A stretch of DNA of 64,000 nt from the NCBI GenBank assembly GCA_947571135.1, contig CANOWY010000001.1, positions 3,604 to 67,603 of the forward strand, given 5' to 3'. This document shows positions 8,551 through 60,702 of the stretch, piece by piece. Below the pieces are notes generated by a model. That model was not told the origin of the DNA. It saw only the letters and a program-made list of their open reading frames with translations, and made no database searches. A program made the translations under genes and the position numbers. The DNA comes from an uncultured Mycoplasmatota bacterium. Lineage in GTDB: Bacteria > Bacillota_I > Bacilli_A > RF39 > UBA660. Position 1 is the first letter of the stretch; every line of letters starts with the position of its first letter.

Positions 8551-8691
8551 AAAAAATATTAATTTTGTCTAAATTCGTATGAATTTGGCAACTTGGTCTT
8601 TTTTTGAGAAATTCTCTAGCAAATTTCCTTTCCTTTATATTAAATTTGGTAAATTAGTAATTTAACGTCATTATTTAGTTGTATTATAGTG
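8551..8691 (+). repeat. Dispersed ~142-bp hairpin/promoter element, copy 1
   Basis: Colinear similarity to 34322-34464 and 60304-60445 (AATTTTGT..AAATTC.TATGAATTTGGCAA.TTGGTCTTTT ... AAATT.GTAATTT ... TTGT.TTATAGTG). Confidence 0.8.
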
Positions 8692-8758
8692 TATTTTTCG
8701 AGATGCAAAACCTCTAGCGTTTGCCACCTTCATCTGTTATCGAGGGAAGCAGTTACAA

Positions 8759-8883
8759 ATGAATAAGCAAGACTTTTTAGTTTTGGACCTAACAATAATT
8801 CTATTAATTTTTTCAACTAGAAAACTAATTTCAAGGAGATTAAAGTAAAGGATTTATCTGATAGAAATATTAACAGTCAGTAG
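8759..8883 (+). pseudogene. Possible decayed N-terminus of an Rpn-like gene, or a 29-aa small ORF (8759-8848)
   Basis: ATG with GAGGGAAG upstream; joined frames read MNKQDFLV/FGPNNNSINFFN*KTNFKEIKVKDL, only weakly Rpn-like. Confidence 0.25.
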
Positions 8884-8946
8884 AACAAGTTTATAGAAAA
8901 AAAATAAGCAAGAAACAAGTTTAAAATCATAAACTAAATTAGGGGA

Positions 8947-8974
8947 TTGCTAATTTGTTTAAATGTGATATAAT
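8947..8974 (+). promoter_or_regulatory. sigma-A promoter of rpmE
   Basis: TTGCTA-16 bp-TATAAT with extended TG; leader hairpin ATGCCTA-agat-TAGGTAT follows. Confidence 0.55.
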
Positions 8975-9028
8975 ACAAAAGACGAAAGAATCTATGCCTA
9001 AGATTAGGTATGGCGAAAGGAGCGAATT

Positions 9029-9247
9029 ATGAGAGCGAATATTCATCCAGAAATGAAAGAAGCCACTGTAAAATGTGCTTGTGGTGCAACTTTTAAAACA
9101 AGATCAACAAAAGAGAATATTGAAGTTGAAATTTGTAGCGAATGTCATCCTTTTTATACAGGAAAACAAGGAAATACAAAAAGAACTGGAAATATTGAAA
9201 AATTTAACCGTAAATATGGTCTAAATAATGATAATAAGGCTGCATAA
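9029..9247 (+). CDS. rpmE: 50S ribosomal protein L31, Zn-binding type
   Basis: [17 protein letters not shown]. Confidence 0.97.
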
Positions 9248-9330
9248 GCAGTTTTTTTTATGCTATAATTAAAATGTGTGAGAAAAAAAGTAAAAAAAGC
9301 AAATAATTAAATAAAGAAAGGAAAAAAATA

Positions 9331-9786
9331 ATGAAAATTTTTATAGGCTCTGACCATCGAGGAGTTGAAATAAAAAAAGAGATAATGAAAAATTTAGAAG
9401 AAGATGGATTTGATATATACAATACCAAAACTCCAAACAAAGAAGTAGATGACTATCCTGATTTTGCATTTGAAGTAGGTGAAAATGTCATAAAAAACGA
9501 TGATTCTTTAGGAATCCTAATCTGTGGCAATGGGATAGGAATTAGTATAGCAGCAAATAAAGTAAAAGGAATTCGTTGTGCAAGAGTGTTTAATGAAGAC
9601 GATGCCTTTAAATCAAAAAATCATAATGGAGCAAATGTGATTGCCATTGGAGCAGACATTCCTTTAGAAAAAGCCATGTCAATTATAGATGTCTTTATCA
9701 GTACCAAAATGGCAAATGAAGAAAGACACCTAAAAAGAATAAATAAAATCATAAATTACGAAAATGGCGAATATAATGAACTATAA
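9331..9786 (+). CDS. rpiB: Ribose-5-phosphate isomerase B
   Basis: GSDHRG, DYPDFA, GILICGNGIGISIAANKVKGIRCA, HNGANV. Confidence 0.95.
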   Translation: MKIFIGSDHRGVEIKKEIMKNLEEDGFDIYNTKTPNKEVDDYPDFAFEVGENVIKNDDSLGILICGNGIGISIAANKVKGIRCARVFNEDDAFKSKNHNGANVIAIGADIPLEKAMSIIDVFISTKMANEERHLKRINKIINYENGEYNEL

Positions 9787-9973
9787 ATTATTAGTATATG
9801 TTTTTAATATTATGTTGTGTATTTTTTCTTTAAGTGGTATCAATTATGAAAAATTTATCAAAAGTAAACGAGTATGGGAAACAAGAATACTAGTTGTTGT
9901 TTTATCACTTGTACTTGCCTACCTACTCACAAACTTTATCTTTGATTTTTTAAGTGTTAGTACAATATCATAA
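9764..9973 (+). CDS. DUF1146 (YwzB-like) small membrane protein
   Basis: Two TM helices, IN.EKFIK, position upstream of spoIID. Confidence 0.75.
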   Translation: MANIMNYKLLVYVFNIMLCIFSLSGINYEKFIKSKRVWETRILVVVLSLVLAYLLTNFIFDFLSVSTIS

Positions 9974-9984
9974 GGAGAATATTT

Positions 9985-10899
9985 ATGAAAAACAAAATAC
10001 TCATTTGTATAGTCGTTGTTTTAAGTATTATTACAGTAGCAGTGGTTAGTAAAAATAAAGAAACTAATCACTCTTTTTTTGATAAAGACGACACCATCAA
10101 AATAAAAACAAAAGAAGAGCGCATTGAAGAATTAAAAATAGAAGATTATCTTATAGGAGTTTTAGCCGCCGAAATGCCTGCTTCTTTTGAAATAGAAGCC
10201 TTAAAAGCCCAAGCAGTTGCTTCACGCAGTTATGCTATGTATAAAATTTTACATAATGAAAGCGAAGACTATGACATTTTAACAAATGTAACAAACCAAT
10301 CCTATATTAACAAAGAAGAAATGCAAGAAAAATGGAAAAACAATTATACCACATATTTAAATAAAATCACAAATGCTGTCCGTGATACCGAAAAAGAAGT
10401 TATGTATTATAATAATGAAATAATTGAATCTTTTTACTTTGCTATGAGTAATGGAGCAACAGAAGATGCCAAAGCAGTATTTCAAACTGACTTACCTTAT
10501 ATAAAAGCAACCACATCTTCTTGGGACAATGAAACCCTAAATAATTTTGCCGTTACCACAAATATAGACAAAGACCAATTTTGTAAATCCTTAAAATTAG
10601 AAGAATGTAATGCCATAACCATAGATAATATAAATTACAGTGCAAGTCATCGCATAAACAGTTTAGAAATCAACAATAAAAAATTTAAAGGAACAGAAGT
10701 AAGAAGTTTATTAAATCTTCGTTCTACGGATTTTGATATTGACATTGGCGAAAGTGAAATCATCATTACCACAAAAGGATATGGACACGGCGTAGGCATG
10801 AGTCAGTATGGAGCAAATGGTATGGCAAAAGAAGGATACAACTATAAAGAAATCTTAAGCCACTATTACAACAACATCACAATCAATAAAATGGTATAA
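9985..10899 (+). CDS. spoIID: Stage II sporulation protein D
   Basis: YLIGVLAAEMPASF..EALKAQAVASRSYA, LNLRST, GYGHGVGMSQYGANGMA. Confidence 0.95.
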   Translation: MKNKILICIVVVLSIITVAVVSKNKETNHSFFDKDDTIKIKTKEERIEELKIEDYLIGVLAAEMPASFEIEALKAQAVASRSYAMYKILHNESEDYDILTNVTNQSYINKEEMQEKWKNNYTTYLNKITNAVRDTEKEVMYYNNEIIESFYFAMSNGATEDAKAVFQTDLPYIKATTSSWDNETLNNFAVTTNIDKDQFCKSLKLEECNAITIDNINYSASHRINSLEINNKKFKGTEVRSLLNLRSTDFDIDIGESEIIITTKGYGHGVGMSQYGANGMAKEGYNYKEILSHYYNNITINKMV

Positions 10900-10923
10900 A
10901 ACTTTTTCTTTTGGGTGAAACTA
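10894..10923 (+). promoter_or_regulatory. sigma-F-type promoter of spoIIQ
   Basis: GTATA(10894-10898)-15 bp-GGTGAAACTA fits the B. subtilis sigma-F consensus GYATA-N15-GGnnAnAHT. Confidence 0.65.
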
Positions 10924-10943
10924 TCTAACAGGAAGGTGATTAG

Positions 10944-11573
10944 ATGACTAAAAGAAAATTGAAAGGAAGCGTAAAACGAGTATTATGTGTTGCAAGTATA
11001 AGTGTAATTTTTATCTCCTTATTTTTTGTAACAAAGAACTTAAAACCAACCAATGAAAGTGATGAAGAATATGTAATGAACTCTATTTTAGATCCCATTA
11101 CTCCTGTTACAAACATAACTGAGACACCAAAGATTACTAGACCTTATACCAGTGACAAAGTACGAATCAGTAATTACTTCTATGAAAAAGATGCAAGTAC
11201 TGAAGAGCAAGAAAAATCATTAATCTATTATGAAAACACATACTTACAAAATAGCGGTGTTGTATATAGTAGTGATGAAGAATTTGACGTCGTTGCCGTT
11301 TATGATGGAACTGTTATAGACATTAAACAAGATGATATTTTAAACAATATTGTTTATGTATCTCATAATAGTAGTCTTACCACTATATATTATGGACTTA
11401 AAGACATAAATGTAAAAATTAATGATTCTATAAATCAAAATACAGTTTTAGGCAAAAGTGACAAAAACAAATTTTCAAACAATGCAAATTCAATGTTATT
11501 CGAAGTCAATTATGATGGCAAAGTATTAAACCCTGAAAGTTTTTATGTCATGGATATAAATGAATTAAATTAA
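10944..11573 (+). CDS. spoIIQ: SpoIIQ-like protein with degenerate M23 domain
   Basis: N-terminal TM, M23 fold lacking Zn ligands, lies between spoIID and spoIIID, sigma-F-like promoter. Confidence 0.8.
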   Translation: MTKRKLKGSVKRVLCVASISVIFISLFFVTKNLKPTNESDEEYVMNSILDPITPVTNITETPKITRPYTSDKVRISNYFYEKDASTEEQEKSLIYYENTYLQNSGVVYSSDEEFDVVAVYDGTVIDIKQDDILNNIVYVSHNSSLTTIYYGLKDINVKINDSINQNTVLGKSDKNKFSNNANSMLFEVNYDGKVLNPESFYVMDINELN

Positions 11574-11625
11574 GTACTAGACAACCCCAGAGATAAATAT
11601 AGTTTATCAAGGGGTTGTTTAAATA

Positions 11626-11883
11626 ATGAATAAAGATTTACTTACAAGAGTAAGAAAAGAAGCACTATATATAGTTCAAAGTAAAAAAACACTAAGAGAA
11701 GTGGCAAAAGTATTCGGAATAAGCAAAAGTACCATACATAAGGATATGAAAGAAAGATTAAAAAAAATTTCTCCTGAATTATTTAGACAAGTAAGGAATG
11801 TTTTAGAAGAACATTTAGAAATTCGTCATATTAAAGGGGGAGAAACAACAAAACAAAAATATTTAAAAAAACAAGTGAGTTGA
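11626..11883 (+). CDS. spoIIID: Sporulation transcription regulator SpoIIID
   Basis: TLREVAKVFGISKSTIHKDM.ERL, RHIKGGETTKQKY. Confidence 0.95.
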   Translation: MNKDLLTRVRKEALYIVQSKKTLREVAKVFGISKSTIHKDMKERLKKISPELFRQVRNVLEEHLEIRHIKGGETTKQKYLKKQVS

Positions 11884-11887
11884 TAAA

Positions 11888-12487: not shown

Positions 12488-12556
12488 CAATTTTGTATTT
12501 TTTTAATGCAATTTATGTTATAATTGCAAATAGTAAACGTAAGGAAGTGTAGAAGT

Positions 12557-14537: not shown

Positions 14538-14555
14538 TTATACGGCGTGTTTTTA
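14523..14555. terminator. Bidirectional terminator between agrC and agrD
   Basis: AAAAAGCACGC-loop-GCGTGTTTTT between convergent genes. Confidence 0.75.
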
Positions 14556-14557
14556 TA

Positions 14558-25802: not shown

Positions 25803-28800
25803 ATGGCAAAAAGTTACATAATAGGATTAGACCTTGGTATAAATAATGTTGGATATGCAATCATAGAGGAAGAAACACGTCATATTATTAAAAAAGGAGT
25901 TAGATTATACAACGCTTCTAATGGAGCAAAAGATAGAAGAATTTTTAGAAATACACGTCGAAGGATGAAAAGAAAAGAGAATAGAGTTAATGAATGCTTA
26001 AAACTTTTAGAAAGTATAGGCTTCCCTAAAAAAAACACAACAGATTCGCTTTTGTTAAACAAAAGGATAAAAGGTTTAAAAGAAAAATTAGATAAACAAG
26101 AAATTGTAAATATAATATGCTATTACATGGTACATCGTGGATACATTCCGTTTGGTGATGAAGAACGTATGTTAGTTGATTTGCAAGGAATGAAACCATG
26201 TGAATATTATAAAAGATTGTGGAACGAATCTGGAAAATACAGAGCATTAGAAAATGTAATAAATCACGAAGATTTAAAAAGAGAATTTAGTGAAATTTTA
26301 AAAGTACAATGTAATTTTTATCCTGAATTGAATAAAATAATTGGATCATCAAAAGAAGAAAAAGGCTTACTTTGGATTTTCAGTCGAAAAAGAAAGTTTT
26401 GGGAAGGACCTGGGAGTCAAAATTCTTGGACTCCATATGGAAGATTTAATAGCAGGGAAGATGTTTTAAATTATATTGAATTAAAAAACAGTGGACAAGA
26501 AAAATATCTTTTTGAAGATCTAATTGGACATTGTAAAATATTTAGAGAAGAAAAATGTGTTCCTAAAGCAAATTTTTTTGCTGAAAAATTTAATTTATTA
26601 AATGACTTTCTCAATATACGAATAATTCATCCTGAATCAATTAAGAAAGAAAATTATATTTTTCAACAAGAAAAGAGTAATAATTACCAATTGACTTCTA
26701 AAGCATTAGAAGAAATTATAAATTATTGTTTAAATTTTGAAGGGAAGACACTTTCTTATACAAAAGTTTTAAAAGAAGTACTTGGCTTAAGAAAAGATGA
26801 TATTTTGGGATATCGAATGGACAAAAGTGGTAATCCTGAGTTTTCACTATTTAAAACATATCGCTATGTCATAAAAATTTTTAAAGAAAAAAAATTATCA
26901 ACTACATGGCTTATTCAAGACAATTATAAAAATTATAATCGCTTAATGGAAATTTTAGCAGTTGCACCTGGCATTGTAGAGATTGAAAAAATGCTTACGA
27001 GTATTCATATTTGCACAGAAGAAGAAAAAGAAGTAATTAAAGAAATAAGTCTCAAATTAAAAAAAGATAGCGCATTAGAATATCATTCGTTAAGTGAGAG
27101 GGCACTTAATAAAGCCATTATAGATATGATAAGTACTGAGATGAATTTTATGCAAGTTTCTAAAAAATTTGATTATGAGAAAGAATCTAGAGAGTATTTT
27201 TTGAAAAATTATGGTAGTGGCGAAGGTAAATTACTTATGACAACTAAATATGTAGATGAGATAATTGCGTCTCCACAAGTAAAAAAAACTTTAAGACAAG
27301 CAATAAAAATAATAAATGCTATTATAAATGAAATGAAAACATATCCACGTGTAATTGCAATAGAATCAACTACAAAAATGAATGGAAAAGATAAAAAGCA
27401 AGAAATAGAACAAGAACAAAAAAGAAATGAATTTCGTCGTAAAGAAGCAATAAAAATATTAGAAGCGCTTTATAATGATGATAAAATTACTGAAAATATG
27501 GTAGAAAGAATAAAATTATTTTTAGAAACAAATAGAGAATGTCCTTACTGTGGTAAGAATGTTTCTATAAATGAAGTAATAAACAATACTCTAGAAGTTG
27601 AGCATATTTTACCAATTAGTCAAAGTGCCGATGATTCTCAAGATAATAAAACAATCTCATGTAGAAATTGTAATGAAAAAAAAGGAAATAAAACGCCATA
27701 TAATTTTTTAAGTAAAGACGAATTTGAAAAGTTCACAACACGTATTTTAAAATACAATATTTCAGATAAAAAAAGAAATAACTTTTTGACAAGAGAAGAT
27801 ATTAATAAATATAAAATAAGATTTTTTAATCGTAATTTGAGAGATACTGCATATGCAACAAAAGAATTGGTAAATCAAGTACATTTATTTAATAACTACT
27901 TAAAAGCAAATATTGAAAATATAGAAATAAAAACTTTATCAACACCAGGTCAATTAACTCATAACATTCGAGATAAATGGAAACTGAAAAAAGATAGAGA
28001 TGACGGAAAATACCATCACGCAGTTGATGCTTCTATAGTTGCAGGCATTGCTACTACAAAATTAGGAGAACTTATTATCGAATCACAAAATGATACACAA
28101 TTCTGGATTTTAAAAAAAGATGTAGCAACAAAAATACCTGAATATTTAGAAAACTTCAATTTAAAAGAAATGAAAAATGAAATTATAAAAATACAAAATG
28201 ATCAAGATAATCAAATATCCATGCAGGTAAATAAAGATCCTAATCGTTCCATTTCAAATGCCAATATATATTCATTTATTAAAAAAGGGGAAGAAGATTA
28301 TTACATTATAGAACAAATTGATGATATTTATTCGCCAGATTTATTACGTAAAGAAAAAGAGAAACTAGATATTTTATTTGATGAAATGAATTCAAAATAT
28401 ACTTTGTTGTGCCAAGAGAAAGATCCAAAATTATTTCGTTATTTGAAAGAAATTTATAAAACATATCAAATAGATAAAACCAATCCTTTTAGAAATTACT
28501 GCGAAGAAAAACTAACAGAAGAGGAAACATTTGATTATTTAAAACATGGAATAAAAACTCCATCTAAAAATAATAAAGGTGTCCTAATAAAAAAACTAAG
28601 ATACATGAGGAGTACAACTGATCCTTATCTTCTAGAAAAGAAAAATATAAATAAAAAAGAAAATACTTATATTGGATTAGATAGGGTATCTATTTATTGT
28701 ACTCGTCTTTACTGGGATAAAGATTTAAAAAAGATTATTTTTATGCCAATTTATTGTCCATGTGTAGATTTTAAAACAAAAAAAATTAATAAAAATCACC

Positions 28801-29072
28801 CCTTATATCAACATTATTATAAAAAATTTGTCCATGAAAAGAATGTAGAATTTATTGTTGATTTATTTAATGGCAATTATTTAGAAATTGAAAAACCAAA
28901 TGGTGAGATAATTTATAGATTTGTTGAAAGTTATCATAAAGTTGGCAAAAAAATTTCGTGTCAAGGTGGCAATTATTTATCATCTAAAGATAAATTTATT
29001 CTATATGATGTAGATATTCTCGGAAATAAGAAAAAGCGTTTGACTTGGCCAAAAGATTCAGATATAATGTAG
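25803..29072 (+). CDS. cas9: Type II CRISPR RNA-guided endonuclease Cas9, 1089 aa
   Basis: RuvC-I IGLDLGINNVG, Arg-rich bridge helix, RuvC-II IAIES, HNH CPYCG..EVEHILP..N..KGNKTP, RuvC-III HHAVDA. Confidence 0.96.
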   Translation: MAKSYIIGLDLGINNVGYAIIEEETRHIIKKGVRLYNASNGAKDRRIFRNTRRRMKRKENRVNECLKLLESIGFPKKNTTDSLLLNKRIKGLKEKLDKQEIVNIICYYMVHRGYIPFGDEERMLVDLQGMKPCEYYKRLWNESGKYRALENVINHEDLKREFSEILKVQCNFYPELNKIIGSSKEEKGLLWIFSRKRKFWEGPGSQNSWTPYGRFNSREDVLNYIELKNSGQEKYLFEDLIGHCKIFREEKCVPKANFFAEKFNLLNDFLNIRIIHPESIKKENYIFQQEKSNNYQLTSKALEEIINYCLNFEGKTLSYTKVLKEVLGLRKDDILGYRMDKSGNPEFSLFKTYRYVIKIFKEKKLSTTWLIQDNYKNYNRLMEILAVAPGIVEIEKMLTSIHICTEEEKEVIKEISLKLKKDSALEYHSLSERALNKAIIDMISTEMNFMQVSKKFDYEKESREYFLKNYGSGEGKLLMTTKYVDEIIASPQVKKTLRQAIKIINAIINEMKTYPRVIAIESTTKMNGKDKKQEIEQEQKRNEFRRKEAIKILEALYNDDKITENMVERIKLFLETNRECPYCGKNVSINEVINNTLEVEHILPISQSADDSQDNKTISCRNCNEKKGNKTPYNFLSKDEFEKFTTRILKYNISDKKRNNFLTREDINKYKIRFFNRNLRDTAYATKELVNQVHLFNNYLKANIENIEIKTLSTPGQLTHNIRDKWKLKKDRDDGKYHHAVDASIVAGIATTKLGELIIESQNDTQFWILKKDVATKIPEYLENFNLKEMKNEIIKIQNDQDNQISMQVNKDPNRSISNANIYSFIKKGEEDYYIIEQIDDIYSPDLLRKEKEKLDILFDEMNSKYTLLCQEKDPKLFRYLKEIYKTYQIDKTNPFRNYCEEKLTEEETFDYLKHGIKTPSKNNKGVLIKKLRYMRSTTDPYLLEKKNINKKENTYIGLDRVSIYCTRLYWDKDLKKIIFMPIYCPCVDFKTKKINKNHPLYQHYYKKFVHEKNVEFIVDLFNGNYLEIEKPNGEIIYRFVESYHKVGKKISCQGGNYLSSKDKFILYDVDILGNKKKRLTWPKDSDIM
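29040..29068 (+). promoter_or_regulatory. sigma-A promoter for tracrRNA inside the cas9 3' end
   Basis: TTGACT(29040-29045)-17 bp-TATAAT(29063-29068). Confidence 0.8.
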
Positions 29073-29074
29073 AT

Positions 29075-29178
29075 ATGGATGTTGAAAAAAGTTTTCAATT
29101 TCCTAAATTACACAGGGTTTCCTATTATAACTTATTTTAGGTAACTGAGGAATGCTTAAAACCGGCATTCCTTTTTTT
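29075..29178 (+). ncRNA. tracrRNA
   Basis: Anti-repeat 29091-29116 matches 25/26 nt of the repeat reverse complement; terminator AGGAATGC-loop-GCATTCCT-T7 at 29148-29178; 5' end estimated from the promoter. Confidence 0.88.
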
Positions 29179-29187
29179 GATAAAAAA

Positions 29188-30081
29188 ATGGCTTTTCGTA
29201 CTATATATATTGAAAAAGCAGTTCGTCTAAGATTAGATTTAAATAATATTGTTGTGAATTATGAAAATGATGATTATCATATCAATATAGATGAAATAAA
29301 TTCCTTAATTATAGATGATCCACGTTGTAACATATCTCTACGATTACTATCTGCTCTATGCGAAAAAGGAATCAATGTGATATTTACAGATTCCTCTCAT
29401 ATGCCAATTGGATCTTTACAAACATTATATAATCATACTAGGGCTCCAAAAAAAATTAAATTGCAAATGTCTTGGGATAAAAATTCTCAAATTTATCTTT
29501 GGACCGAAATAGTAAAACAAAAAATAGAAAATCAAATAGATACACTAAAGAAAAAAGGAAAATTAGAAAAAGTAGATTTAATAGAAAAAATGAAAACAGA
29601 AGTTACACTTGGTGATTTAAAAAATAAAGAAGGTCTTGCAAGTAGAGTTTATTTTAAAGAACTATTTGGAGTAACTTTCAAGCGTTTTGATGAGAATATA
29701 ATAAATTACGCTATGAACTATATATATCAGATATTACGATCTAAAATTGCTCAAGAGATTGTAGCATGTGGTTATATTCCTGCTATAGGAATCTGCCATA
29801 AAAGTGAATTTAATTTATATAACTTAGCAGATGATTTTATTGAACCTTTTCGACCTATATGTGATTATTACGTTTGTGATATATTAGAAAATACAATAGA
29901 AAATTATTTGACTTCTGAAATTAAACAAAAAATAGTAAACATTCTAAACCATAATGTATGTTTTAAAAAAGCCTCTTATAAAATTCATATTGTGATTCAA
30001 TTTTATGTTCAATCATTGTTTAAATATCTTGAAACAGGAGATATTGCACATATAGAATTTCCAACACTATGGAATATGTAA
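29188..30081 (+). CDS. cas1: CRISPR-associated endonuclease Cas1, type II
   Basis: MAFRTIYI start, NKEGLASRVYF..LFG, GICHKSEFN.YNLADDFIEPFRP; alternative start 29152 falls inside the tracr terminator. Confidence 0.94.
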   Translation: MAFRTIYIEKAVRLRLDLNNIVVNYENDDYHINIDEINSLIIDDPRCNISLRLLSALCEKGINVIFTDSSHMPIGSLQTLYNHTRAPKKIKLQMSWDKNSQIYLWTEIVKQKIENQIDTLKKKGKLEKVDLIEKMKTEVTLGDLKNKEGLASRVYFKELFGVTFKRFDENIINYAMNYIYQILRSKIAQEIVACGYIPAIGICHKSEFNLYNLADDFIEPFRPICDYYVCDILENTIENYLTSEIKQKIVNILNHNVCFKKASYKIHIVIQFYVQSLFKYLETGDIAHIEFPTLWNM

Positions 30082-30440
30082 ATTTGTATCGTCAAATGCG
30101 TTTAATTTTAATTTATGATTTACCTGTTCAAGATGAAATGGAAAGAAAAGTTTACAGTCGATTCCATCGAGATATTACTAGATTAGGTTTTTATATGTTG
30201 CAATATTCAGTTTATTCAAAAGTAATACAAAATGATACATCATTAAAACAGTACTTATTTAGAGTTGAAAGAATAGTTCCAAAAAAAGGGAATATCATTG
30301 TGTTAAAAGTAACAGAAAAACAATACCAAGAGATGATATACTTACGTGGTGAAAAAAATAAATTTGATATTTTAGTTGGTGGAAAGGAATTTGTTGTTTT
30401 TGGAGGTGATCGAAATGATGAATTTAAAAATCGTGAATAA
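30069..30440 (+). CDS. cas2: CRISPR-associated endoribonuclease Cas2
   Basis: MRLILIYDLP, GFYMLQYSVYSK, VTEKQY. Confidence 0.94.
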   Translation: MEYVNLYRQMRLILIYDLPVQDEMERKVYSRFHRDITRLGFYMLQYSVYSKVIQNDTSLKQYLFRVERIVPKKGNIIVLKVTEKQYQEMIYLRGEKNKFDILVGGKEFVVFGGDRNDEFKNRE

Positions 30441-31305
30441 AGAAGAGGAATTTTTAGAGCCAATTTTAAAAGATAATTCTCTTTTTATTTTAGATAAAAA
30501 TACATTTTTTAAATTTTATTATCAATTTTATCAATGTCTTGAAAACAAAGATAAAAATATAAAGATTAATATCGGAGAAAAAATGCTTGAACCAAAAAAT
30601 ACTATATTATTTTCATTTTGTGATTATAAAGAGATTTTAGAAAATTTAAAATATAAAAAAGGAACTCTATTTTATGAATACTTGTTATCATGTTTAGGAG
30701 AACTTAACATTTTAGAAGAGGATGTAGTATTTTATGATATAGCAAATATTGCAAAGAATATAACTGAAAAAGCAAATGTAAAAGTATTTTATAATTTAGA
30801 AGAAGATATTGAAAAATTGTTATTTAGTACTGTAGATTTTACATTAGATTTTGAAGTAAAAAATATTGTAGAAGTTTTAAAAAATTTATTAAAATCTTAT
30901 ATTGAAAAGAATCAAAATAAAATTTTTATCATTTTTTACGATTCAAGTTTATTGTCTTTAAAATTTGAATATTTTGACTTTTGCTATACTTTTGATATTT
31001 CAGAACAAAAAGACCTTGATAGATATAATTTGATTTGTATGGAAGAAATAAAAAAGTTTGATATTAATTCTTTTGTAGAAAAATTGGAAAGTATTTGGCC
31101 TGTGGAATTCTATAATGAGAAAGTAATCAATTATGTTCAAAAATATTTTATTTTTAAAAAGTGTAATATTTCATTAATTGCACATGAAGAACCAGAATAT
31201 TTAACATATAAATTAATGAGTAAGATATATAATGAGGAGATCAGTATAAAATTGGATAATTGTACTATTCGCGACAATATTAAATCTTTTTTAGAACAGA
31301 TTTGA
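30415..31305 (+). CDS. csn2: Long-type Csn2, type II-A
   Basis: Lies between cas2 and the array; DYKEILENLKYKKGTLFYEYL resembles the S. thermophilus CRISPR1-type long Csn2 motif; ATG after GGAGGTGA. Confidence 0.78.
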   Translation: MMNLKIVNKEEEFLEPILKDNSLFILDKNTFFKFYYQFYQCLENKDKNIKINIGEKMLEPKNTILFSFCDYKEILENLKYKKGTLFYEYLLSCLGELNILEEDVVFYDIANIAKNITEKANVKVFYNLEEDIEKLLFSTVDFTLDFEVKNIVEVLKNLLKSYIEKNQNKIFIIFYDSSLLSLKFEYFDFCYTFDISEQKDLDRYNLICMEEIKKFDINSFVEKLESIWPVEFYNEKVINYVQKYFIFKKCNISLIAHEEPEYLTYKLMSKIYNEEISIKLDNCTIRDNIKSFLEQI

Positions 31306-31330
31306 AACCTTTATGATATAATATTTATAG
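31306..31330 (+). promoter_or_regulatory. CRISPR leader, 25 bp, with extended -10 promoter
   Basis: TG-A-TATAAT at 31314-31322; leader end ATTTATAG abuts repeat 1. Confidence 0.6.
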
Positions 31331-32290
31331 GTTTTAGGATCCTGTGTAATTTAGGAAGTTGAAAACCAATTCCCAGTTGGGTAGATGTTCTATCAAGTTT
31401 TAGGATCCTGTGTAATTTAGGAAGTTGAAAACGTGTTGATTTGATTTGCAACGTCAGTTAGTGTTTTAGGATCCTGTGTAATTTAGGAAGTTGAAAACAG
31501 ATAGAATTCGTGCTCACTCAAACGGTGTGTTTTAGGATCCTGTGTAATTTAGGAAGTTGAAAACGTTTTGTCTTCCTGTTATATTAGGAACTTTGTTTTA
31601 GGATCCTGTGTAATTTAGGAAGTTGAAAACTACTATAAAAGCACTTAAAACGGATACTCCGTTTTAGGATCCTGTGTAATTTAGGAAGTTGAAAACTACT
31701 ATAAAAGCACTTAAAACGGATACTCCGTTTTAGGATCCTGTGTAATTTAGGAAGTTGAAAACTTTTACTATAAGAAACTCCACAATCTAGCAGTTTTAGG
31801 ATCCTGTGTAATTTAGGAAGTTGAAAACATACGAAGCCGATGTAAAGGTTCAATACTTGTTTTAGGATCCTGTGTAATTTAGGAAGTTGAAAACAACTTT
31901 TAAGATTAAAACACCTTATACAAAGTTTTAGGATCCTGTGTAATTTAGGAAGTTGAAAACTTGACATACTAGTTCCATCTATCATTAAAGGTTTTAGGAT
32001 CCTGTGTAATTTAGGAAGTTGAAAACTATCCACTATGATTGTAATACATCTTATCGGTTTTAGGATCCTGTGTAATTTAGGAAGTTGAAAACCTAAGCCC
32101 TTAAATTCAAGATATTTCTCAAGTTTTAGGATCCTGTGTAATTTAGGAAGTTGAAAACTACTTTTATACAAAATCTTGCTAACTCTACGTTTTAGGATCC
32201 TGTGTAATTTAGGAAGTTGAAAACTTTTCCACATCCTGTTAGCATAAATACTGCGTTTTAGGATCCTGTGTAATTTAGGAAGTTGAAAAC
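31331..32290 (+). CRISPR. CRISPR array: 15 identical 36-bp repeats GTTTTAGGATCCTGTGTAATTTAGGAAGTTGAAAAC and 14 spacers of 30 bp
   Basis: 66-bp period read directly; spacers 5 and 6 are identical; orientation from tracrRNA complementarity and the leader promoter. Confidence 0.99.
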
Positions 32291-34273
32291 AATTTTTGAA
32301 CCTTTTTGAGGTGGTAATTTATCTGTCATAAGTTTTTGAATTTCGGCTAACTTAACGCGTTTGTCATATCCATCTTGCATTGTAGATATTTCTTTCATAT
32401 TATCCATAATAAATTGTACTTCTTCTGGTTTTAAATCGAAATCACTTTTATGCTTATCTATCCAATCTTTAGATTTATTCTTAATCATTTGATTATATGC
32501 TTCAGTAAGTTCACTTTGAGCGTACTTAACCATGCCTTCAGGAGTCATACGTTCCATAATATTAAAGGCCTGTACAGTTTGACCAGCCTTAGAACCAATA
32601 TCACGCATTTTCTTAGCAACTTCCACCATAGAATCATAATCGCCATTATCGGCATATTGTTTAAGTAAAATCCACCCTTCTGCTACATCTGTAGCATCTG
32701 CATTTACACTCTCTTTGTTAAACCATCTTGTACTTTCAACTTGACCATCCTTGTTTAATCTTTCAAATGCTTTATCTAAACTTTCTTTGTTTGTTACTTT
32801 ATCATAATATTTAACTTCATTTTCGGATAAAATTTTATTCTTTTGTTCTAAATTTAACATGTCTGTTTTTTCTAAGATATTATTCCAATATTTACTCTCA
32901 CCATCATTTACTTGATTTCTATTAACTTTTGGCAATATAGGAGTAGTATTAGCATCATTTGAATTTAAATTAGATATTTCTAATGGGTTTAATGTCTTAT
33001 TACTTTCTGTAAATTCTTTACTATATGGAGCATTTATTTTATTTTGTGCTTTAAGAGAACTTATATCTTGCATATTTGTTCTAGTTCCAGTTGCTTTATA
33101 ATTCTTTTCTAAATGTTCTTGCCAAGATGTATTATTTTGAGTTTCTTGCATAGAATGTTTAGTAGATGGCAATTTGACATTATCCTTTGATTGTGTTATA
33201 TTGTCATTAAGAAAAGGAATACTTATCGATTCAGTCGCAGTATTAACTGGTGAACTGATTTGGGTATTCCTTTTTAAGTTTGTTATGTCATATAACATTT
33301 TTTTATTGCCATTTTTAGCAACATTTATTAAACCAGTATAGGTTTTATCTCCTACTTTAAAAGTAGTTTCGTAATAATCCCAACCATCTTTAGCAAAATT
33401 ATGTATTCCATCATCCAGAGCACTATATTTATATTTTGAAACTTCTAATAAATTATCTAATTCTGTAGAGGCTTTCATTTTTGAAATCTTATCATTTTTT
33501 TGAAGGGTATTTTTTGGAAAGGTATATTCATTTGCCGTTTTTCTATTTACAACAACTACATCATTATTTGAATTTATACCAGTATTCTTAAAATTATCCA
33601 AAATATATTGTTTTGCGATTTTAGTTTGTTCGTACAAATTCTTACCTTCAAATATATCTTGGTTTGTGTCCACATTCACATATTTATTACCATTTACATC
33701 TTGTTGGATACTAAACATATTATTATTTAAATTATTACTTTGAGTTCTATATGCAGTCTCCCATTTATTCTGTAAATCTTTAATGAATAGACTTTCTTTT
33801 GAATTACCAGTTATTTTGTTGGCTAAAGATACAATAGCATTATAAATACGTTTGAATATACTTGGTTGTTCCATAGATAAATTATTAATAAATTCTTGAT
33901 TACCGAATAATTGTCCTGATATATCTGCTAATACTTCACTAGATACATCATTTGTGCCATAAGTTTGTTTTAGACTTTCTAAGGCATTATTAAACTCACT
34001 ATTTTTACTAGCATAGTCAATTACTAATTTTTTCATAGAATCAGTTTCTATTGCATGTGTAACTTCATGCATAATAAGAAATTCTCCTGCTCGTTGAGAG
34101 TTAGGGTTTATTTTTATTTCTATTTCCCCATTTTGATTGTTAATTTGAGCATTTATCATATTCCCATTTTTAGAAGTTATGTTTGTATCAAATGTAATAT
34201 TATAATTTTTATCTGATACTATTTTTTCTAAGGTATTTATAAAATCGTGTGTTTGTTGTGAATTGTTAAAGTA
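32291..34273 (-). pseudogene. Doubly truncated fragment of a phage/conjugative-element large polyvalent-type protein gene
   Basis: Frame open from 34273 with no RBS or start context; it runs into repeat 15 (..KGSKI|VFNFLNYTGS*). Contains a HEVTH zincin motif and an LPD-like segment (DGWDYYETTF...LINVAK...LYDIT). Confidence 0.7.
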
Positions 34274-34321: not shown

Positions 34322-34464
34322 AAAAAGTACCAATTTTGTTAAAATTCCTATGAATTTGGCAAATTGGTCTTTTATTATGTCAAAATCTCCAGTAAATCCC
34401 CTCTGTTTTTCTCCCGATTTAACAAATTCGTAATTTGCATTCCTTTTTTACTTGTTTTATAGTG
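34322..34464 (+). repeat. Dispersed ~142-bp hairpin/promoter element, copy 2
   Basis: Hairpin ACCAATTT..AAATTC-ctat-GAATTT..AAATTGGT plus CTTTT; ends in TTGCAT-17 bp-TATAGT (34435-34463). Confidence 0.85.
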
Positions 34465-34576
34465 GAACACACGGACACCAAGCACTTAAACTTAAGTCGT
34501 TTCGTTTAAAAGAAGTTTAAAATAGTTTGAGAGAAAAGCAAAGGATTTAGCAACGAAAGGAAAGAGTAAAATAAAC

Positions 34577-35062
34577 ATGAAAATAATAAAAAAAGAAACA
34601 TTTCTAAAAATATTTACAATAGAGGAAAATCGATTGTTATTAGACACCATGATTTTAAATTTTTTTGGCTTAGAAGCAACGAATAAAATAGAAGAAACAG
34701 AAATAGAAAAAGAAGATATCGTTCTAACTTTTATACTCATGATAAATACAGAAATAATCTTAAAAATTAATGTAAAAGATACTAAAAATTTATTCTATGC
34801 TTCTAAAATATTTTATCTTAATTTCAGTTATCAGGAGGTAGCCAAATCTCATGAACTTTTAATCCCATGTTATTGGGAAATCTATATTCCATATTGTTAT
34901 CAACACCAAAAGAACAACCGTAAACTTTTTTTAGTTGCAGCCTTACTTTATTGCGAAAATAAAAAAGAAGTAGAAAAAATATTAAAAAAACTAAACATAG
35001 AGAGTCAAAATGATATTGAAGAAATTTTAGAAATTGTAGAAAAAAATATCGAGTTTTTATAA
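34577..35062 (+). CDS. Shortened, probably inactive Rpn/PD-(D/E)XK transposase-like protein
   Basis: FLKIFTIEENRLLL..ILNFFGL and NLFYASKIFY echo Rpn-family motifs; catalytic D/E positions appear substituted. Confidence 0.5.
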   Translation: MKIIKKETFLKIFTIEENRLLLDTMILNFFGLEATNKIEETEIEKEDIVLTFILMINTEIILKINVKDTKNLFYASKIFYLNFSYQEVAKSHELLIPCYWEIYIPYCYQHQKNNRKLFLVAALLYCENKKEVEKILKKLNIESQNDIEEILEIVEKNIEFL

Positions 35063-53266: not shown

Positions 53267-53287
53267 AAAGTTGAACTTTCACAAAAT

Positions 53288-54890: not shown

Positions 54891-54969
54891 TTTAATTCAC
54901 CTCTACTAATTATTATGATATTTGTTTCAAATTATGCAAATGTTTAGTATAATGTGTATGGTGAATAAT

Positions 54970-55890: not shown

Positions 55891-55892
55891 AA

Positions 55893-57395: not shown

Positions 57396-57470
57396 ACTAG
57401 GTGAAATTTACCATTTATTTAAACACATTTAAATGATATAATTACTCTATAATATGAGGTGGTAAACGTA

Positions 57471-58172
57471 GTGAATTTAATAGAAGTAAAAAATTGTTAT
57501 AAAGTATACAACAATGGAGTTACGGCCATTGCAGATTTAAATTTAGCCATAGCAAGAGGAGAATTTGTATTTGTAATTGGGGCAAGTGGAAGTGGAAAAT
57601 CTACTTTAATCAAAATGTTATATCGTGAAGAAAAGCCAACGAATGGAAAAGTATTTGTTGGTGGTATTAATGTGGCAAAATTAAGAAATTCCAAAGTATT
57701 TAAATTAAGAAGAAAATTAGGAATTGTGTTCCAAGATTTTAAACTGCTCCCAAAATTAACAGTATATGAAAATGTGGCGTTTGCACTAGAAGCCATAGGA
57801 CTACACAGCAAAGAAATTCGTCCTAAAGTAATAAAAGCCTTGGAAAACGTTGGACTAAAAGATAAAATGCGTAGTTTTCCTAATCAACTATCTGGAGGAG
57901 AGCAACAAAGAGTATGCATTGCAAGATCCATCGTAAATGAACCAAAACTACTTATTTGTGATGAACCAACAGGAAACTTGGACCCAGACATTTCAAGAGA
58001 AATTGTGAGTATTTTAGATAAAATTAATAAAGAATTTGGAACGACAATTATAATGGCAACCCATGATAGAGACATTGTAAATAAAATGAAAAAAAGAGTA
58101 ATATTACTGGAAAATGGTGTCTTGGCAAGTGATGAAAAGAAAGGAAGTTATGTAGTACATGAAAGCCATTAG
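57471..58172 (+). CDS. ftsE: Cell division ATP-binding protein FtsE
   Basis: GASGSGKST, VFQDFKLL, LSGGEQQR, DEPTGNLD; GTG start after GAGGTG. Confidence 0.95.
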   Translation: MNLIEVKNCYKVYNNGVTAIADLNLAIARGEFVFVIGASGSGKSTLIKMLYREEKPTNGKVFVGGINVAKLRNSKVFKLRRKLGIVFQDFKLLPKLTVYENVAFALEAIGLHSKEIRPKVIKALENVGLKDKMRSFPNQLSGGEQQRVCIARSIVNEPKLLICDEPTGNLDPDISREIVSILDKINKEFGTTIIMATHDRDIVNKMKKRVILLENGVLASDEKKGSYVVHESH

Positions 58173-59061
58173 AATATTAATTCGTGGAATACGTGATGCA
58201 TTTAAAAGTGTAATTCGTAACTTTAGTTTATCAACGGCGGCCATTACTTGTAGTAGTATTACACTAGTATTAGTAGCAGTTGCTATGATTATTTCTTACA
58301 ACGTTAAAAATATCACTTCTGAGTTAGAACAGGAACTTACAATCGTTGTATATATGAAAGAAACAGGAACTGAAGAACACATAGAAGAAATGAAAAAAAA
58401 TTTAGATACTATGAAAGAGTCAGGAAATGTAGCAGACTACAAATATAAAAGTAAAGATGAATGGAAACTTGAAATGAAAACGTATTCAGACACATTTAAC
58501 ACAGCATTAGAGTTTTTAGAAACTAATCCTTTACTTGATTCATTTATGGTAACAGTAAAAGATGTATCGCACTTAAAAGAAACAACAGAAGAGATAAGAA
58601 AATATGAATCTGTTTCCAGTGCTGATTATGGAGAAGGTATGGCAGAAAATTTAGTAATTGCTTTTGATGTTATTGAGAAAGTTACGATTATTATTGTTCT
58701 TGCCTTGGTACTCGTTACGGCTTTCTTAATTGGAAACACCATTAAATTAACAATATTTTCTAGAAAAAATGAAATTGAAATTATGCGTTTAGTAGGTGCT
58801 AGTAATATTTCTATTCGTTTGCCTTTCCTATTTGAAGGATTATTTTTAGGAATATTAGGAAGTATTATACCAATATTAGTAACCATATACGGATATGTAT
58901 TACTATATGATCATTTTAATGGATACTTATTCACTCAAATTATTCAATTAGCAGAACCATTTAATTTCATTCTATATGTATCAGGATTATTGCTAATTAT
59001 TGGTGCTATTATCGGTATGCTTGGAAGTTATCGCGCAGTAAGGAAGTATTTGAAAATATGA
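58159..59061 (+). CDS. ftsX: Cell division permease FtsX
   Basis: NPLLDSF, NTIKLTIFSRKNEIEIMRLVGA, PFLFEG. Confidence 0.95.
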   Translation: MKAIRILIRGIRDAFKSVIRNFSLSTAAITCSSITLVLVAVAMIISYNVKNITSELEQELTIVVYMKETGTEEHIEEMKKNLDTMKESGNVADYKYKSKDEWKLEMKTYSDTFNTALEFLETNPLLDSFMVTVKDVSHLKETTEEIRKYESVSSADYGEGMAENLVIAFDVIEKVTIIIVLALVLVTAFLIGNTIKLTIFSRKNEIEIMRLVGASNISIRLPFLFEGLFLGILGSIIPILVTIYGYVLLYDHFNGYLFTQIIQLAEPFNFILYVSGLLLIIGAIIGMLGSYRAVRKYLKI

Positions 59062-60305
59062 TAAAAAGAATAATGAAAAAAACGTTTTCGATTTTAATGT
59101 TGTTTATTGTATTGTTTACTTATACAATAAGTCCAATTCCTGTAGATGCAGCAGAGATAAAAGATCCACAAACTTTAGGAGACTTACAACATAATTTACA
59201 AGAATTAAAAAACAAAAAAGCAGAAAATGACCGTAAGCAGCAAAGTGCTAAAGATGAAATTCAAAACAAAAAAAACGCGATTACAAAAGCCGAAGCCGAT
59301 ATTACCCAAGCCGAATCAGATATAGACGAAGCAGAACAAAGAATAATAGAATCAAATGAAAGAATAGAAGGACTAAAAGAACAAACCGAACAAATTTTAA
59401 AAGTATTGCAACAATTGCAAAATCAAAATGTCTATTTGGAATATGTATCGGATTCTTCCTCTATAACAGAACTTGTTATGCGTATTTCTGCTATAGAACA
59501 GATTACAGACTCAAATCAAAAAAATTTAAAAAATTTACAAAATCTAATAAAACAAAATGAACAATTAAAAGTAGAATTAGCAGAAAAACAAAAAAATTTA
59601 GAGCAAAAAATAGAGGATTATCAAAAAAAGATTGAAAGTTTATATGGGGACTTAGAGTCTTACGATAAATTTGAACTTGATATAGATACGCAAATAAAAT
59701 TATTAGAAGCCCAAGTCAAAGAATACGAACGATTAAGTATAGAAAAATACAACAAAATTGTACCTACTGCTCGATTAGATGAATTAGACAATGCTCCATA
59801 CAATGCAGGTTGGTTAAAACCTTTAAAGAAAGGTTCAGTTACAAGCCCAGAAGGATATAGAACACACCCTGTAACAGGAGTAAAATATAGTTTTCATAGT
59901 GGAATTGACATTGGAAAAAATGCTGAAGGGACACCTGTTTATGCAGCGGCTGCAGGAAAAGTTTCAGGAATAGTCAATCGATATAGTTGTGGAGGAAATA
60001 TGGTGTACGTAACAGTCACAGTAGGAGGAGTAAAATATACAACGTATTACTATCATTTACTCAGTATAAAAGTTAAGTTAAATCAAATTGTTACACAAGA
60101 CACTGTAATTGGTACAGTAGGAGGAGGTTCTACTGCTAAGAAAAATGGTGGATATGATAGTTGTACCACTGGTGCACATCTTCATTTTGGTGTAGCAAAA
60201 GGACATTATTCTGGAAGTATTCCAACATCTAAAGTAATTGTCCCTCCAGGATTTAATAACAAGAAAGGGTATAGTTGGTCAACAAGATCAGCCTTTTATG
60301 GATAA
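59058..60305 (+). CDS. Coiled-coil M23 peptidoglycan hydrolase, EnvC/CwlO-like FtsEX partner
   Basis: Signal peptide, long coiled coil, HSGIDI, YYHL, TTGAHLHF. Confidence 0.88.
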   Translation: MIKRIMKKTFSILMLFIVLFTYTISPIPVDAAEIKDPQTLGDLQHNLQELKNKKAENDRKQQSAKDEIQNKKNAITKAEADITQAESDIDEAEQRIIESNERIEGLKEQTEQILKVLQQLQNQNVYLEYVSDSSSITELVMRISAIEQITDSNQKNLKNLQNLIKQNEQLKVELAEKQKNLEQKIEDYQKKIESLYGDLESYDKFELDIDTQIKLLEAQVKEYERLSIEKYNKIVPTARLDELDNAPYNAGWLKPLKKGSVTSPEGYRTHPVTGVKYSFHSGIDIGKNAEGTPVYAAAAGKVSGIVNRYSCGGNMVYVTVTVGGVKYTTYYYHLLSIKVKLNQIVTQDTVIGTVGGGSTAKKNGGYDSCTTGAHLHFGVAKGHYSGSIPTSKVIVPPGFNNKKGYSWSTRSAFYG

Positions 60306-60445
60306 AAAAGTACCAATTTGGTTAAATTTGTATAAATTTACTAAATTGGTCTTTTCTTTTAGAAAAATATCTAAAAGATTTTATCTGATTTTTCTAAAAT
60401 TTCCCAAATTGGTGATTTGTATTTCTTTTAAGTTGTTTTATGGTG
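60304..60445 (+). repeat. Dispersed ~142-bp hairpin/promoter element, copy 3
   Basis: AAAAGTACCAATTT..TAAATTT-gtat-AAATTTA..AAATTGGTCTTTT; ends TTGTAT-16 bp-TATGGT. Confidence 0.82.
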
Positions 60446-60559
60446 ATACTAATTATTTTGATAATTCTTGTTGGTTGTAAAACTAGTTTTTGGTGAATTT
60501 GGGAAATAAAAAAGAACACTATACATAAAGGATAAATGGCTCGCTTAAATTAAGTTTAC

Positions 60560-60702
60560 GAGGTTGCTAAAAAATACCTCATATTCCTCCAATCACTATG
60601 GAACAAATTGTAGAGTGCACAGATTTATCCATAGAAGAAATAGAACAATTAAAATTAGTTAAAGAAACAATTTTAAGGTTTCCTTTCTTTTTGAAACAAT
60701 GA
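60560..60702 (+). pseudogene. Remnant of an Rpn-family C-terminal tail; small ORF 60598-60702
   Basis: EVAKKYL /frameshift/ IPPITMEQIVECTDLSIEEIEQLK matches the IAKxxL...EQI...TGLS.EEI..L tail typical of Firmicutes Rpn proteins. Confidence 0.6.

Follow-up and report, generated by a model that had tools for sequence, protein, structure and literature searches.

A 64,000-nucleotide stretch of DNA from an uncultured, spore-forming member of the Bacilli known from mouse-gut metagenomes (28% G+C; hereafter the window) contains three dispersed copies of a repeat of about 142 bp, each consisting of a hairpin followed by a promoter-like region. Related genomes contain the same repeat joined to further conserved sequence, and our reading is that it would form the 5′ control region of a dispersed cassette, about 430 bp long, that carries a small gene. 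We consider it very probable that the repeat is part of such a larger cassette and that the copies in the window are its relics. The promoter would yield a plus-strand RNA of about 250 nt whose ends pair over about 20 bp and in which a hairpin would sequester the Shine-Dalgarno (SD) sequence; the RNA would encode a peptide of 23 residues, almost purely Ile and Leu, giving it the anatomy of a type I toxin mRNA. Taken together, the window copies are probably decayed members of a new, dispersed family of type I-toxin-like cassettes that combine a terminator, a phased promoter, a closed mRNA and a peptide. A narrower proposition, which we hold tentatively, is that the cassette constitutes a genuine type I toxin-antitoxin system. 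If the reading is correct, it adds an undescribed family of type I-toxin-like peptide cassettes in uncultured, spore-forming Bacilli of the mouse gut.

Three Copies of One Repeat

When the copy limits are set from an A-run through the -10 box, copy 1 occupies 8551-8691 (141 bp), copy 2 34322-34464 (143 bp) and copy 3 60305-60445 (141 bp). The copies are colinear and align over their whole length with a mean column identity of 78%, in agreement with a preliminary description of this DNA that had reported three colinear elements of nearly equal length. Within each copy we distinguish M1, comprising the A-run, a hairpin (H1) and a T-run, from M2, comprising the spacer and promoter part (Table 1). 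A profile built from the three copies found no fourth copy in the 64 kb window. Because such a profile is circular, each copy was also searched alone with nhmmer. Copy 1 retrieved copy 2 with an E value of 8.5e-11 and copy 2 retrieved copy 1 with 7.5e-8, while the values for copies 2 and 3 were 4.8e-5 (copy 2 as query) and 2.4e-9 (copy 3 as query). Copies 1 and 3 matched each other weakly (E 0.21 and 0.007); as both match copy 2, the family is linked through copy 2, and it is a real repeat family.

Two of the copies lie 0-6 bp behind stop codons, as had been noted. Copy 1 begins 6 bp past the stop of an open reading frame (ORF) at 7844-8545 that has a GDSL-lipase-like Pfam match, and the A-run of copy 3 overlaps the TAA stop of an M23 peptidase gene (59058-60305). 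Copy 2 had been placed after a CRISPR locus; it does lie downstream of one but not directly, since a minus-strand ORF of 633 aa stands between the array and the copy.

A pattern scan of genome contigs returned 15 single chance matches; the window's own genome was not among them. In the metagenome scan the only matches were a sequence identical to copy 2 and a single weak hairpin. Logan contigs of DNA runs were too fragmented for copy counting, and copies 1 and 3 were not recovered from them as themselves. A fourth locus, on contigs of four metagenome runs (X1-X4; X-numbers denote such runs), matches the hairpin part of copy 2 only, over 47 nt with 6 mismatches. Its flanks differ (...TTAGAAAAAAATAA / ACTTTTTTCAATAAATTC...), and it is a solo hairpin without the promoter module. 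On a contig of run X27, 64 bp are skipped within the AT-rich segment 34220-34285 just upstream of copy 2, a deletion variant in the population.

Intact Cassettes in Related Genomes

The search for further copies in relatives, which had been proposed as a check, found five. On contigs of related genomes (L-numbers below), three of them stand directly after ftsH and upstream of the homologue of the 161-aa ORF that follows copy 2 (L023/L024, L026/L028 and L048), one after an M23 peptidase gene (L044), and one between a gene for a lactamase-B-fold protein and gerQ (L046). A more divergent module is present at the same place as the first three in L029/L030 and L050. Homology among the copies runs past the -10 box, and L026, L048 and L046 share about 440 bp (L026 against L046, E 1e-50).

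The order of elements after the -10 box is a leader (GCGAGATGC...TAGTGTTTGCC), a hairpin that includes the SD sequence, an ORF of 23 codons, an A-run with a second hairpin (H2), and a 3′ segment, GGCAAGCACT...(A/G)TCTCGC, which is the antiparallel complement of two leader elements. The SD sequence, GGAGGT, pairs with an upstream anti-SD segment in its hairpin. The ORF encodes MINKKDILILLLIVIIILLILFN in L026 and L028 and MMDKKDFLILLLIVIIILLILFN in L048, and both versions are intact and preceded by GGAGGT.

In the minimum free energy (MFE) structures predicted by RNAfold, the ends of the RNA are closed in L026, L048 and L044 through GCGAGAU/AUCUCGC and AGUGUUUGCC/GGCAAGCACU; L046 forms the first of the two helices alone. 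For the plus-strand RNA (about 250 nt) the MFE is -74.6 kcal/mol in L048 (z -8.0) and -64 kcal/mol in L026 (z -5.6), and the minus strand of L048 reaches a z of -3.3 only. Inspection by eye revealed compensatory differences in helix b (GCC/GGC versus GCT/AGC), in helix a (G-C to A-U in L023 and L050), in the SD hairpin (GCUAC/GUAGC versus CCAC/GUGG) and in H2 (CACU/AGUG versus CACC/GGUG). Such an mRNA would be translationally silent through its own fold. It would possibly also be countered by a convergent antisense RNA of about 90 nt, starting at a TATAYT box and ending at H2.

Decay of the Window Copies

The cassette would be copied to new intergenic sites and would then decay by deletion of the peptide ORF. 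The window is consistent with such a course, with a damaged ORF in copy 1 and none left in copies 2 and 3. The 29-aa ORF of copy 1 is homologous to the 23-aa ORF of the relatives but has suffered an internal deletion and a frame shift at its end; the L026 cassette aligns to window positions 8534-8820, through the ORF, with an E value of 5e-8. The 3′ closing elements of this copy are gone and the downstream RNA is unstructured (z -0.06). In copy 2 the leader, the peptide ORF and H2 are deleted. In copy 3 the leader is mutated, the peptide ORF is absent, a further 33 nt are deleted relative to L044, and the structure is lost (z +0.88). The earlier suggestion that the non-coding part outlasts the gene is thus borne out, the sequence downstream of the module being deleted or unstructured, with the difference that the gene in question is a peptide gene.

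The start of the copy 1 ORF, AAATGAATAAGCAAGA (8757-8772), recurs 141 bp downstream, at 8898-8913, with 88% identity. The recurrence could be what remains of an earlier second cassette in tandem, or a coincidence.

Relics of this kind, reduced to terminator and promoter, can be mistaken for mobile elements or regulatory RNAs. The module that persists may also serve its neighbors. Judging from its position, the M2 part of copy 2 is probably the promoter of a 161-aa ORF, parA and parB in this genome, so that a relic would here possibly have been taken into use by the parAB operon.

The H1 Hairpin

Every copy in the window begins with an A-run, which is followed by a hairpin of about 18 bp, bulged and AU-rich, and then by a T-run. 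The hairpins of copies 1, 2 and 3 have MFE values of -11.6, -15.2 and -17.2 kcal/mol and z values of -3.8, -4.3 and -6.6, respectively, in line with the initial observation of a long hairpin and T-run at the start of each copy. Because of its G-U pairs, the hairpin is more stable on the plus than on the minus strand. A covariance model of the hairpin scored copy 1 at 73.1 bits on the plus strand versus 25.2 on the minus strand, and copies 2 and 3 at 78.7 and 73.3 bits; the seven good copies scored 51-81 bits on the plus strand versus 24-42 bits on the minus strand. Over 236 kb of related DNA the model found nothing else convincing, and no copy beyond the expected sites.

Covariation in the inner stem had also been put forward as evidence for the hairpin. 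The change from C-G to U-A in copy 3 is indeed present, but it lacks statistical support. In the model-guided alignment of the seven copies, 89.1% of cells pair, versus 87.8% in shuffles, and the number of pairs with two-sided changes, two, is the shuffle mean. Since both measures match the shuffles, covariation is no proof of selection for the hairpin. When the partner columns were slid, pairing fell to 55% or less, showing that the hairpin is register-specific. The case for H1 is carried by its occurrence in every copy except the decayed one in L023 and by the G-U asymmetry between the strands. A hairpin and T-run are present in all copies, the hairpin being stronger on the plus strand. M1 would most likely act as an intrinsic two-way terminator that insulates the cassette from the upstream gene.

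Phased Sites and Putative Promoter

At its 3′ end each copy has a promoter-like box of the form TTG-16/17 bp-TAT(A/G)GT, in agreement with the sigma-A-like sequence described there. The motif AAATTNG occurs in L026 and L048 at positions 40, 61, 82 and 103, that is, at four sites with an exact spacing of 21 bp. The window copies retain the first and last of these sites (40 and 103), 61-63 bp apart; the background frequency of the motif is 2 per kb. The 3′ arm of the hairpin constitutes the first site, and the 5′ arm repeats the motif in inverted orientation. At the other end of the array, the last site overlaps the -35 and forms a palindrome of 15 bp, CAAATTnnnAATTTG, that hardly varies; copy 1 shows a single two-sided change in it. 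The divergent L050 has AAATTGAC at every occurrence of the motif. An array of this kind would bind a regulator and end in a sigma-A-type promoter.

M1 and M2 together measure 141-145 bp in all eight copies (three in the window and five in relatives), at 66-78% identity in a star-like pattern. The eight-way alignment of this part is nearly gap-free, and the sequence downstream of it is full of indels.

Two other interpretations were considered. As possible CodY boxes, the palindromes have only a loose likeness to AATTTTCWGAAAATT, and the half-site spacing differs. A minus-strand small RNA (sRNA) over M1+M2, or an antisense promoter opposite the SD sequence and ORF, was rejected; no conserved -35/-10 was seen by eye, and the plus strand folds and scores far better.

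The same properties could be explained if the repeat were a host regulatory module, a terminator, four-site operator and promoter belonging to the regulon of one DNA-binding protein, with the peptide RNA as one target and not a toxin. The strict length, the exact phasing with the last site on the -35, the two-sided change in the palindrome of copy 1 and the concerted change of the motif in L050 would all fit such a module, as would the position of copy 2, from which it could drive the 161-aa ORF and parAB. However, intact copies always have the module together with the same downstream RNA, at three unrelated sites. Copy 3 regulates nothing obvious, because the native terminator is retained downstream of it, together with whiA's own promoter, and no binding protein has emerged. 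We consider this explanation unlikely.

A more specific proposal keeps the toxin-like cassette and makes M1+M2 a length-locked insulator-operator-promoter unit with a dedicated, co-evolving DNA-binding protein that would control such cassettes and perhaps target their insertion. The candidate binder would be the 161-aa protein, the gene for which adjoins the ancestral copy in every relative; the terminator hairpin consists of two inverted operator copies, and direct copies follow every 21 bp to the -35. We regard this proposal as a long shot. If true, it would place a type I-like toxin under the control of a transcription factor and imply a new mode of spread.

Comparison with Type I Toxin-Antitoxin Systems

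Several known type I systems first drew attention as repeated intergenic DNA, ldr-rdl as the long direct repeats (LDR) and ibs-sib as the QUAD repeats. In Escherichia coli these systems occur in several copies per genome, arise by lineage-specific duplication and are prone to decay; a repeat of 0.15-0.5 kb holds a promoter, a structured mRNA and a tiny, very hydrophobic ORF, Ibs being 18-19 aa long (PMC2887945). The cassettes described here have in common with LDR and QUAD the repeated intergenic DNA, promoter, structured mRNA, tiny hydrophobic ORF, and duplication followed by decay. They differ in that they have no sequence similarity to them, are dispersed rather than tandem, and have an antisense RNA as a candidate only. 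They also have their own upstream hairpin, the putative terminator, and an array of four sites phased at 21 bp, and they come from an uncultured, low-GC, spore-forming inhabitant of the mouse gut.

Closure of a full-length mRNA by pairing of its extreme 5′ and 3′ ends is known from hok/sok, where duplicated elements allow alternative pairings. The predicted 5′-3′ closure is a likeness to that system, and elements b, H2-3′, H2-5′ and b′ would likewise offer alternative pairings; the family and phylum are different, and the closure is known here from predicted folds only. The geometry of the candidate antisense unit, from the TATAYT box to H2, would be that of the Gram-positive systems txpA/RatA and bsrG/SR4 of Bacillus subtilis and Fst/par, which combine a small membrane peptide and a sequestered ribosome-binding site with an antitoxin opposite the 3′ end of the toxin gene (PMC2887945). 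In contrast to those systems, the peptide here is shorter (23 aa) and lacks a charged C-terminal cluster. The putative antisense promoter is weak by sequence, and H2 is missing in the most divergent relative. Searches of the peptides against Pfam (best E 0.56) and NCBIfam gave no significant match, and neither these searches nor that of the cassette against Rfam placed them in a toxin family already described (Fst/Ldr, TxpA, Ibs, Hok and others).

A type I toxin gene is expected to have an ORF of fewer than 60 codons for a hydrophobic peptide of the membrane type, preceded by a ribosome-binding site. Such an ORF is found in the relatives, and the window keeps the damaged 29-aa version. Folding prediction gives a structured mRNA with a sequestered SD sequence and 5′-3′ closure. 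The candidate antitoxin unit consists of a conserved TATAYT box together with a minus-strand hairpin and T-run at H2, which in L046 is called as a minus-strand terminator.

Several observations weigh against the toxin-like interpretation. The antitoxin RNA is a candidate only; its putative minus-strand promoter is a -10-like box with no credible -35, and H2 is absent in L050. The public runs labelled RNA hold the organism at a depth of 2-3 only and look like DNA. The peptide is without the charged C-terminal tail common in type I toxins, and a built-in terminator and a regulated promoter with four phased sites are unusual for this class. The long-range helices are backed by a few compensatory differences that were noted by eye among 4-6 sequences. 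The covariation of H1 is not significant, and a simple terminator consensus scan does not call H1, because its stem is too AT-rich and bulged. Moreover, orthologous M1+M2 modules are 76-79% identical, which is near the value for four-fold degenerate sites (65-83%), so that the sign of constraint is the fixed length and lack of indels and not slow substitution. Finally, three species share an identical run of at least 36 nt within the ORF, a possible sign of a role at the RNA level.

This last point bears on the possibility that the cargo is a structured non-coding RNA in which the small ORF is incidental, the copies being sibling sRNA genes with a promoter and an upstream insulator. The very strong closed fold would agree with this. 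So would two copies that keep RNA features without a functional ORF, namely L044, which has no ORF and keeps the closing helices and H2, and L046, in which the start codon is lost and the remaining sequence kept. On the other hand, a good SD sequence is maintained at the right distance, within a sequestering hairpin whose arms co-vary. Only synonymous differences (TTA/CTA/CTC, TTG/TTA) occur in the hydrophobic core of the ORF, and the divergent L050 keeps a KK-plus-hydrophobic ORF with different nucleotides; together these argue for coding. The copies without an ORF look like deletion products and not like a conserved alternative. A purely non-coding cargo therefore appears to us rather improbable, and we retain the peptide-encoding mRNA.

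The identical stretch inside the ORF, ATTGTTATAATCATTCTCTTGATACTATTTAACTAG (L026 9420-9470, with equivalents in L048 and L046), is shared by three species and two genomic sites. On the plus strand it includes a perfect extended -10, TGTTATAAT, and its conservation exceeds coding need.

Gain and Loss of Cassette Sites

Copy 2 is orthologous to the copies after ftsH in L023, L024, L026, L028 and L048. Since the module stands directly after ftsH in these relatives, copy 2 is ancient. At the copy 3 site the module is also present in the sister species represented by L044, whose WhiA is 96% identical. In L046 (WhiA 89%) it is found instead between the lactamase-B-fold gene and gerQ, a site that is empty in the window (48 bp); neither the window nor L047 has an equivalent of this copy. 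At the copy 3 site, L045 and L046 have an intergenic region of only 105 and 68 bp, respectively, which consists of a simple terminator and the whiA promoter. The same terminator hairpin and T-run, which make up nearly the whole of this region in the two contigs that lack the cassette there, are retained downstream of the cassette in the window. After the stop codon L045 reads AAAAGTACCATT, a 12-nt match to the left end of the cassette, so that the short form is a deletion scar and not a virgin target. At all these sites the cassette has a stop codon on one side and, on the other, either the resident terminator or the next promoter.

In total, the module occupies four different intergenic sites in the relatives, with lineage-specific presence and absence. 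The preliminary description had envisaged mobile or duplicating cassettes that settle behind genes and bring a terminator and a promoter. A duplicated family behind stop codons, polymorphic at four sites, agrees with that part of the proposal, but the cargo is not the Rpn/PD-(D/E)XK gene that it assigned to the cassette. The empty-site comparison it recommended did not define the ends, as no terminal inverted repeats or target-site duplications could be defined at the two comparisons of filled and empty sites.

These sites also bear on whether the repeat is a miniature non-autonomous transposon, of the MITE, REP, BOX or Correia-like kind, mobilized in trans by a transposase for which the hairpin and motifs would be recognition sites. 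Dispersal right behind stop codons, differences in presence between close species, the combination of a hairpin with several copies of a short motif, and the hairpin-only fourth locus in the same metagenomes would be compatible with such an element. The lack of definable termini and target duplications speaks against it, as does the small number of copies (three in 64 kb and, by the hairpin model, none beyond the expected sites in the related DNA). The copies are 66-78% alike, which points to an old origin and not to recent bursts, and the empty site in L045 is a scar. The cassette has no match in Rfam or in plasmid and phage collections. We find a transposon origin very doubtful, and prefer a toxin-like cassette that would spread by duplication.

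The 161-aa ORF and the Proposed Rpn Genes

According to the preliminary description, each copy precedes a decayed gene for an Rpn-like nuclease, namely a shortened ORF after copy 2, an N-terminal relic after copy 1 and a frameshifted C-terminal tail after copy 3. The ORF after copy 2, of 161 aa, is not shortened. It has 19 homologues of 156-166 aa, 50-81% identical and all full length, and in the relatives, wherever the gene upstream of it was visible, the order is ftsH-ORF-parA-parB with the cassette after ftsH, apart from L029, which has PDDEXK_2 genes upstream instead. The ORF has no match in Pfam or NCBIfam, and none of the 20 family members matches PF12784 at E<=10. Comparison of the family with a neighboring, genuine PDDEXK_2 protein in hhalign gave a probability of 0.2%. 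A profile search of 1.84 billion representative proteins returned 17, all from the same narrow family of 96-210 aa except for a 65-aa fragment and one marginal match. The AlphaFold model, with a predicted local distance difference test (pLDDT) score of 86 and a predicted template modeling (pTM) score of 0.80, has no structural neighbor in PDB or BFVD (best E 0.46 and 0.58, respectively), and no PDB sequence matches the protein. A remote relationship to Rpn was therefore rejected, the searches by hidden Markov model (HMM), profile-profile comparison, library profile and fold all being negative. Inclusion of the 161-aa gene in the cassette was rejected too, since no relic of it was found near copies 1 and 3. 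The ORF is an intact, conserved orphan gene and not a shortened Rpn gene, and from the model the protein would have an orphan fold, encoded at a conserved chromosome-partition locus.

A six-frame search of the window with an HMM built from 104 PDDEXK_2 proteins found nothing after copies 1 and 2, and thus no N-terminal relic at copy 1. The tail after copy 3 fares better. The stretch ITMEQIVECTDLSIEEIEQLK ranked first among 2364 six-frame segments in both single-protein and 104-sequence HMM searches, matching the last 21 profile positions with E 0.034-0.039, a short match that is the best in the window to the PDDEXK_2 C-terminus; the orthologous stretch in L044 is broken by stop codons. The tails of Rpn proteins are known to be variable and can be translated separately (PMC10400941). 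Compared with the Rpn/PDDEXK_2 families (PF04754 and PF12784, with intragenic C-terminal antitoxins), the likeness is confined to this stretch of 21 residues, and no nuclease domain is found near any of the three copies.

Nor did the loci looked up show the association with intact Rpn genes that had been predicted. The element was not found near the PDDEXK_2 loci on the low-GC contigs L031-L038. On L029 (1-1505), two PDDEXK_2 genes lie about 1.3 kb apart, each followed by the same stretch of about 160 bp, immediately upstream of a cassette; their own upstream regions are without M1+M2. Despite the copy 3 tail and the adjoining genes of L029, a mobile cassette that brings in a terminator and expresses a nuclease gene of the Rpn/PD-(D/E)XK kind is largely refuted and highly improbable, as the 161-aa family is unrelated, copy 1 has no relic, the PDDEXK_2 genes looked up are not preceded by the element, and intact cassettes hold a peptide mRNA and no nuclease gene. 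The Rpn link should be kept out of annotations, in which the 161-aa ORF is best described as a conserved gene of unknown function.

Table 1. Coordinates of repeat modules, cargo remnants and neighboring features in the window.
Feature	Position	Strand	Details
Copy 1, M1	8551-8606	+	H1 5′ arm 8558-8576, loop 8577-8580, 3′ arm 8581-8597; T-run 8598-8606
Copy 1, M2	8607-8691	+	second 3′-arm motif 8643-8663, 61 bp past the first; -35 TTAACG 8662-8667; -10 TATAGT 8685-8690; repeat D1, 76%
Copy 1, decayed cargo	8697-8848	+	leader relic CGAGATGCAAAACCTCTAGCGTTTGCCACC; SD GAGGGAAG; 29-aa ORF 8759-8848, MNKQDFLVLDLTIILLIFSTRKLISRRLK
Type II CRISPR-Cas locus	25803-32291		cas9 25803-29072 (1089 aa, HNH and RuvC); three further ORFs to 31305; array 31331-32291
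633-aa ORF	32258-34159	-	between CRISPR array and copy 2; begins MINAQINNQNGEIEIK; HEVTH motif near N-terminus
Copy 2, M1	34322-34377	+	A-run; H1 5′ arm 34329-34347, loop 34348-34351, 3′ arm 34352-34368; T-run
Copy 2, M2	34378-34464	+	second motif about 34414-34432; -35 TTGCAT 34435-34440; 17-bp spacer; -10 TATAGT 34458-34463; repeat I3
Copy 2, truncated cargo	34465-34576	+	3′ closing relics CCAAGCACTT 34478-34487 and GTCGTTTCGTTTAAAAGAAG 34497-34516 (compared with L026, L048, L023)
161-aa ORF	34577-35062	+	conserved orphan gene upstream of parA/parB; outside the cassette
Copy 3, M1	60305-60360	+	H1 5′ arm 60312-60329, loop 60330-60333, 3′ arm 60334-60350; T-run
Copy 3, M2	60361-60445	+	second motif 60397-60423, 63 bp past the first; -35 TTGTAT 60417-60422; 16-bp spacer; -10 TATGGT 60439-60444; repeat D1, 78%
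Copy 3, decayed cargo	60446-60570	+	A-run and H2 5′ arm relic 60506-60525; CTCGCTTAAATTAAG 60540-60554 (alignment with L044)
Possible PDDEXK_2 (Rpn-type) C-terminal tail relic	60592-60654	+	ITMEQIVECTDLSIEEIEQLK, in a 34-codon ORF, 60598-60702
Native terminator of the M23 peptidase gene	60661-60693	+	AAAGAAAC..GGTTTCC, then TTTCTTTTTG; retained downstream of the cassette; whiA promoter next

Neighboring Loci

The repeat unit of the CRISPR array is 36 nt long (GTTTTAGGATCCTGTGTAATTTAGGAAGTTGAAAAC). As L023, L026 and L048 have the cassette directly after ftsH, the CRISPR locus and the 633-aa ORF, which lie between ftsH and copy 2 in the window, are a lineage-specific insertion at this place. The 633-aa ORF matches no family in Pfam or NCBIfam, and may be a fragment of a larger protein of a mobile element. 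The PDDEXK_2 genes of L029 lie at the same ftsH/parAB junction, which suggests a hotspot of insertion.

Downstream of copy 1, positions 8992-9022 give a sub-threshold match to the L31-Firmicutes ribosomal-protein leader RF03156 (29.9 bits, compared with a gathering threshold of 33.3; E 2.5e-4). The match is closely followed by rpmE (9029-9247) and is preceded by a strong TTGCTA-16-TATAAT promoter (8947-8974) with an extended TG.

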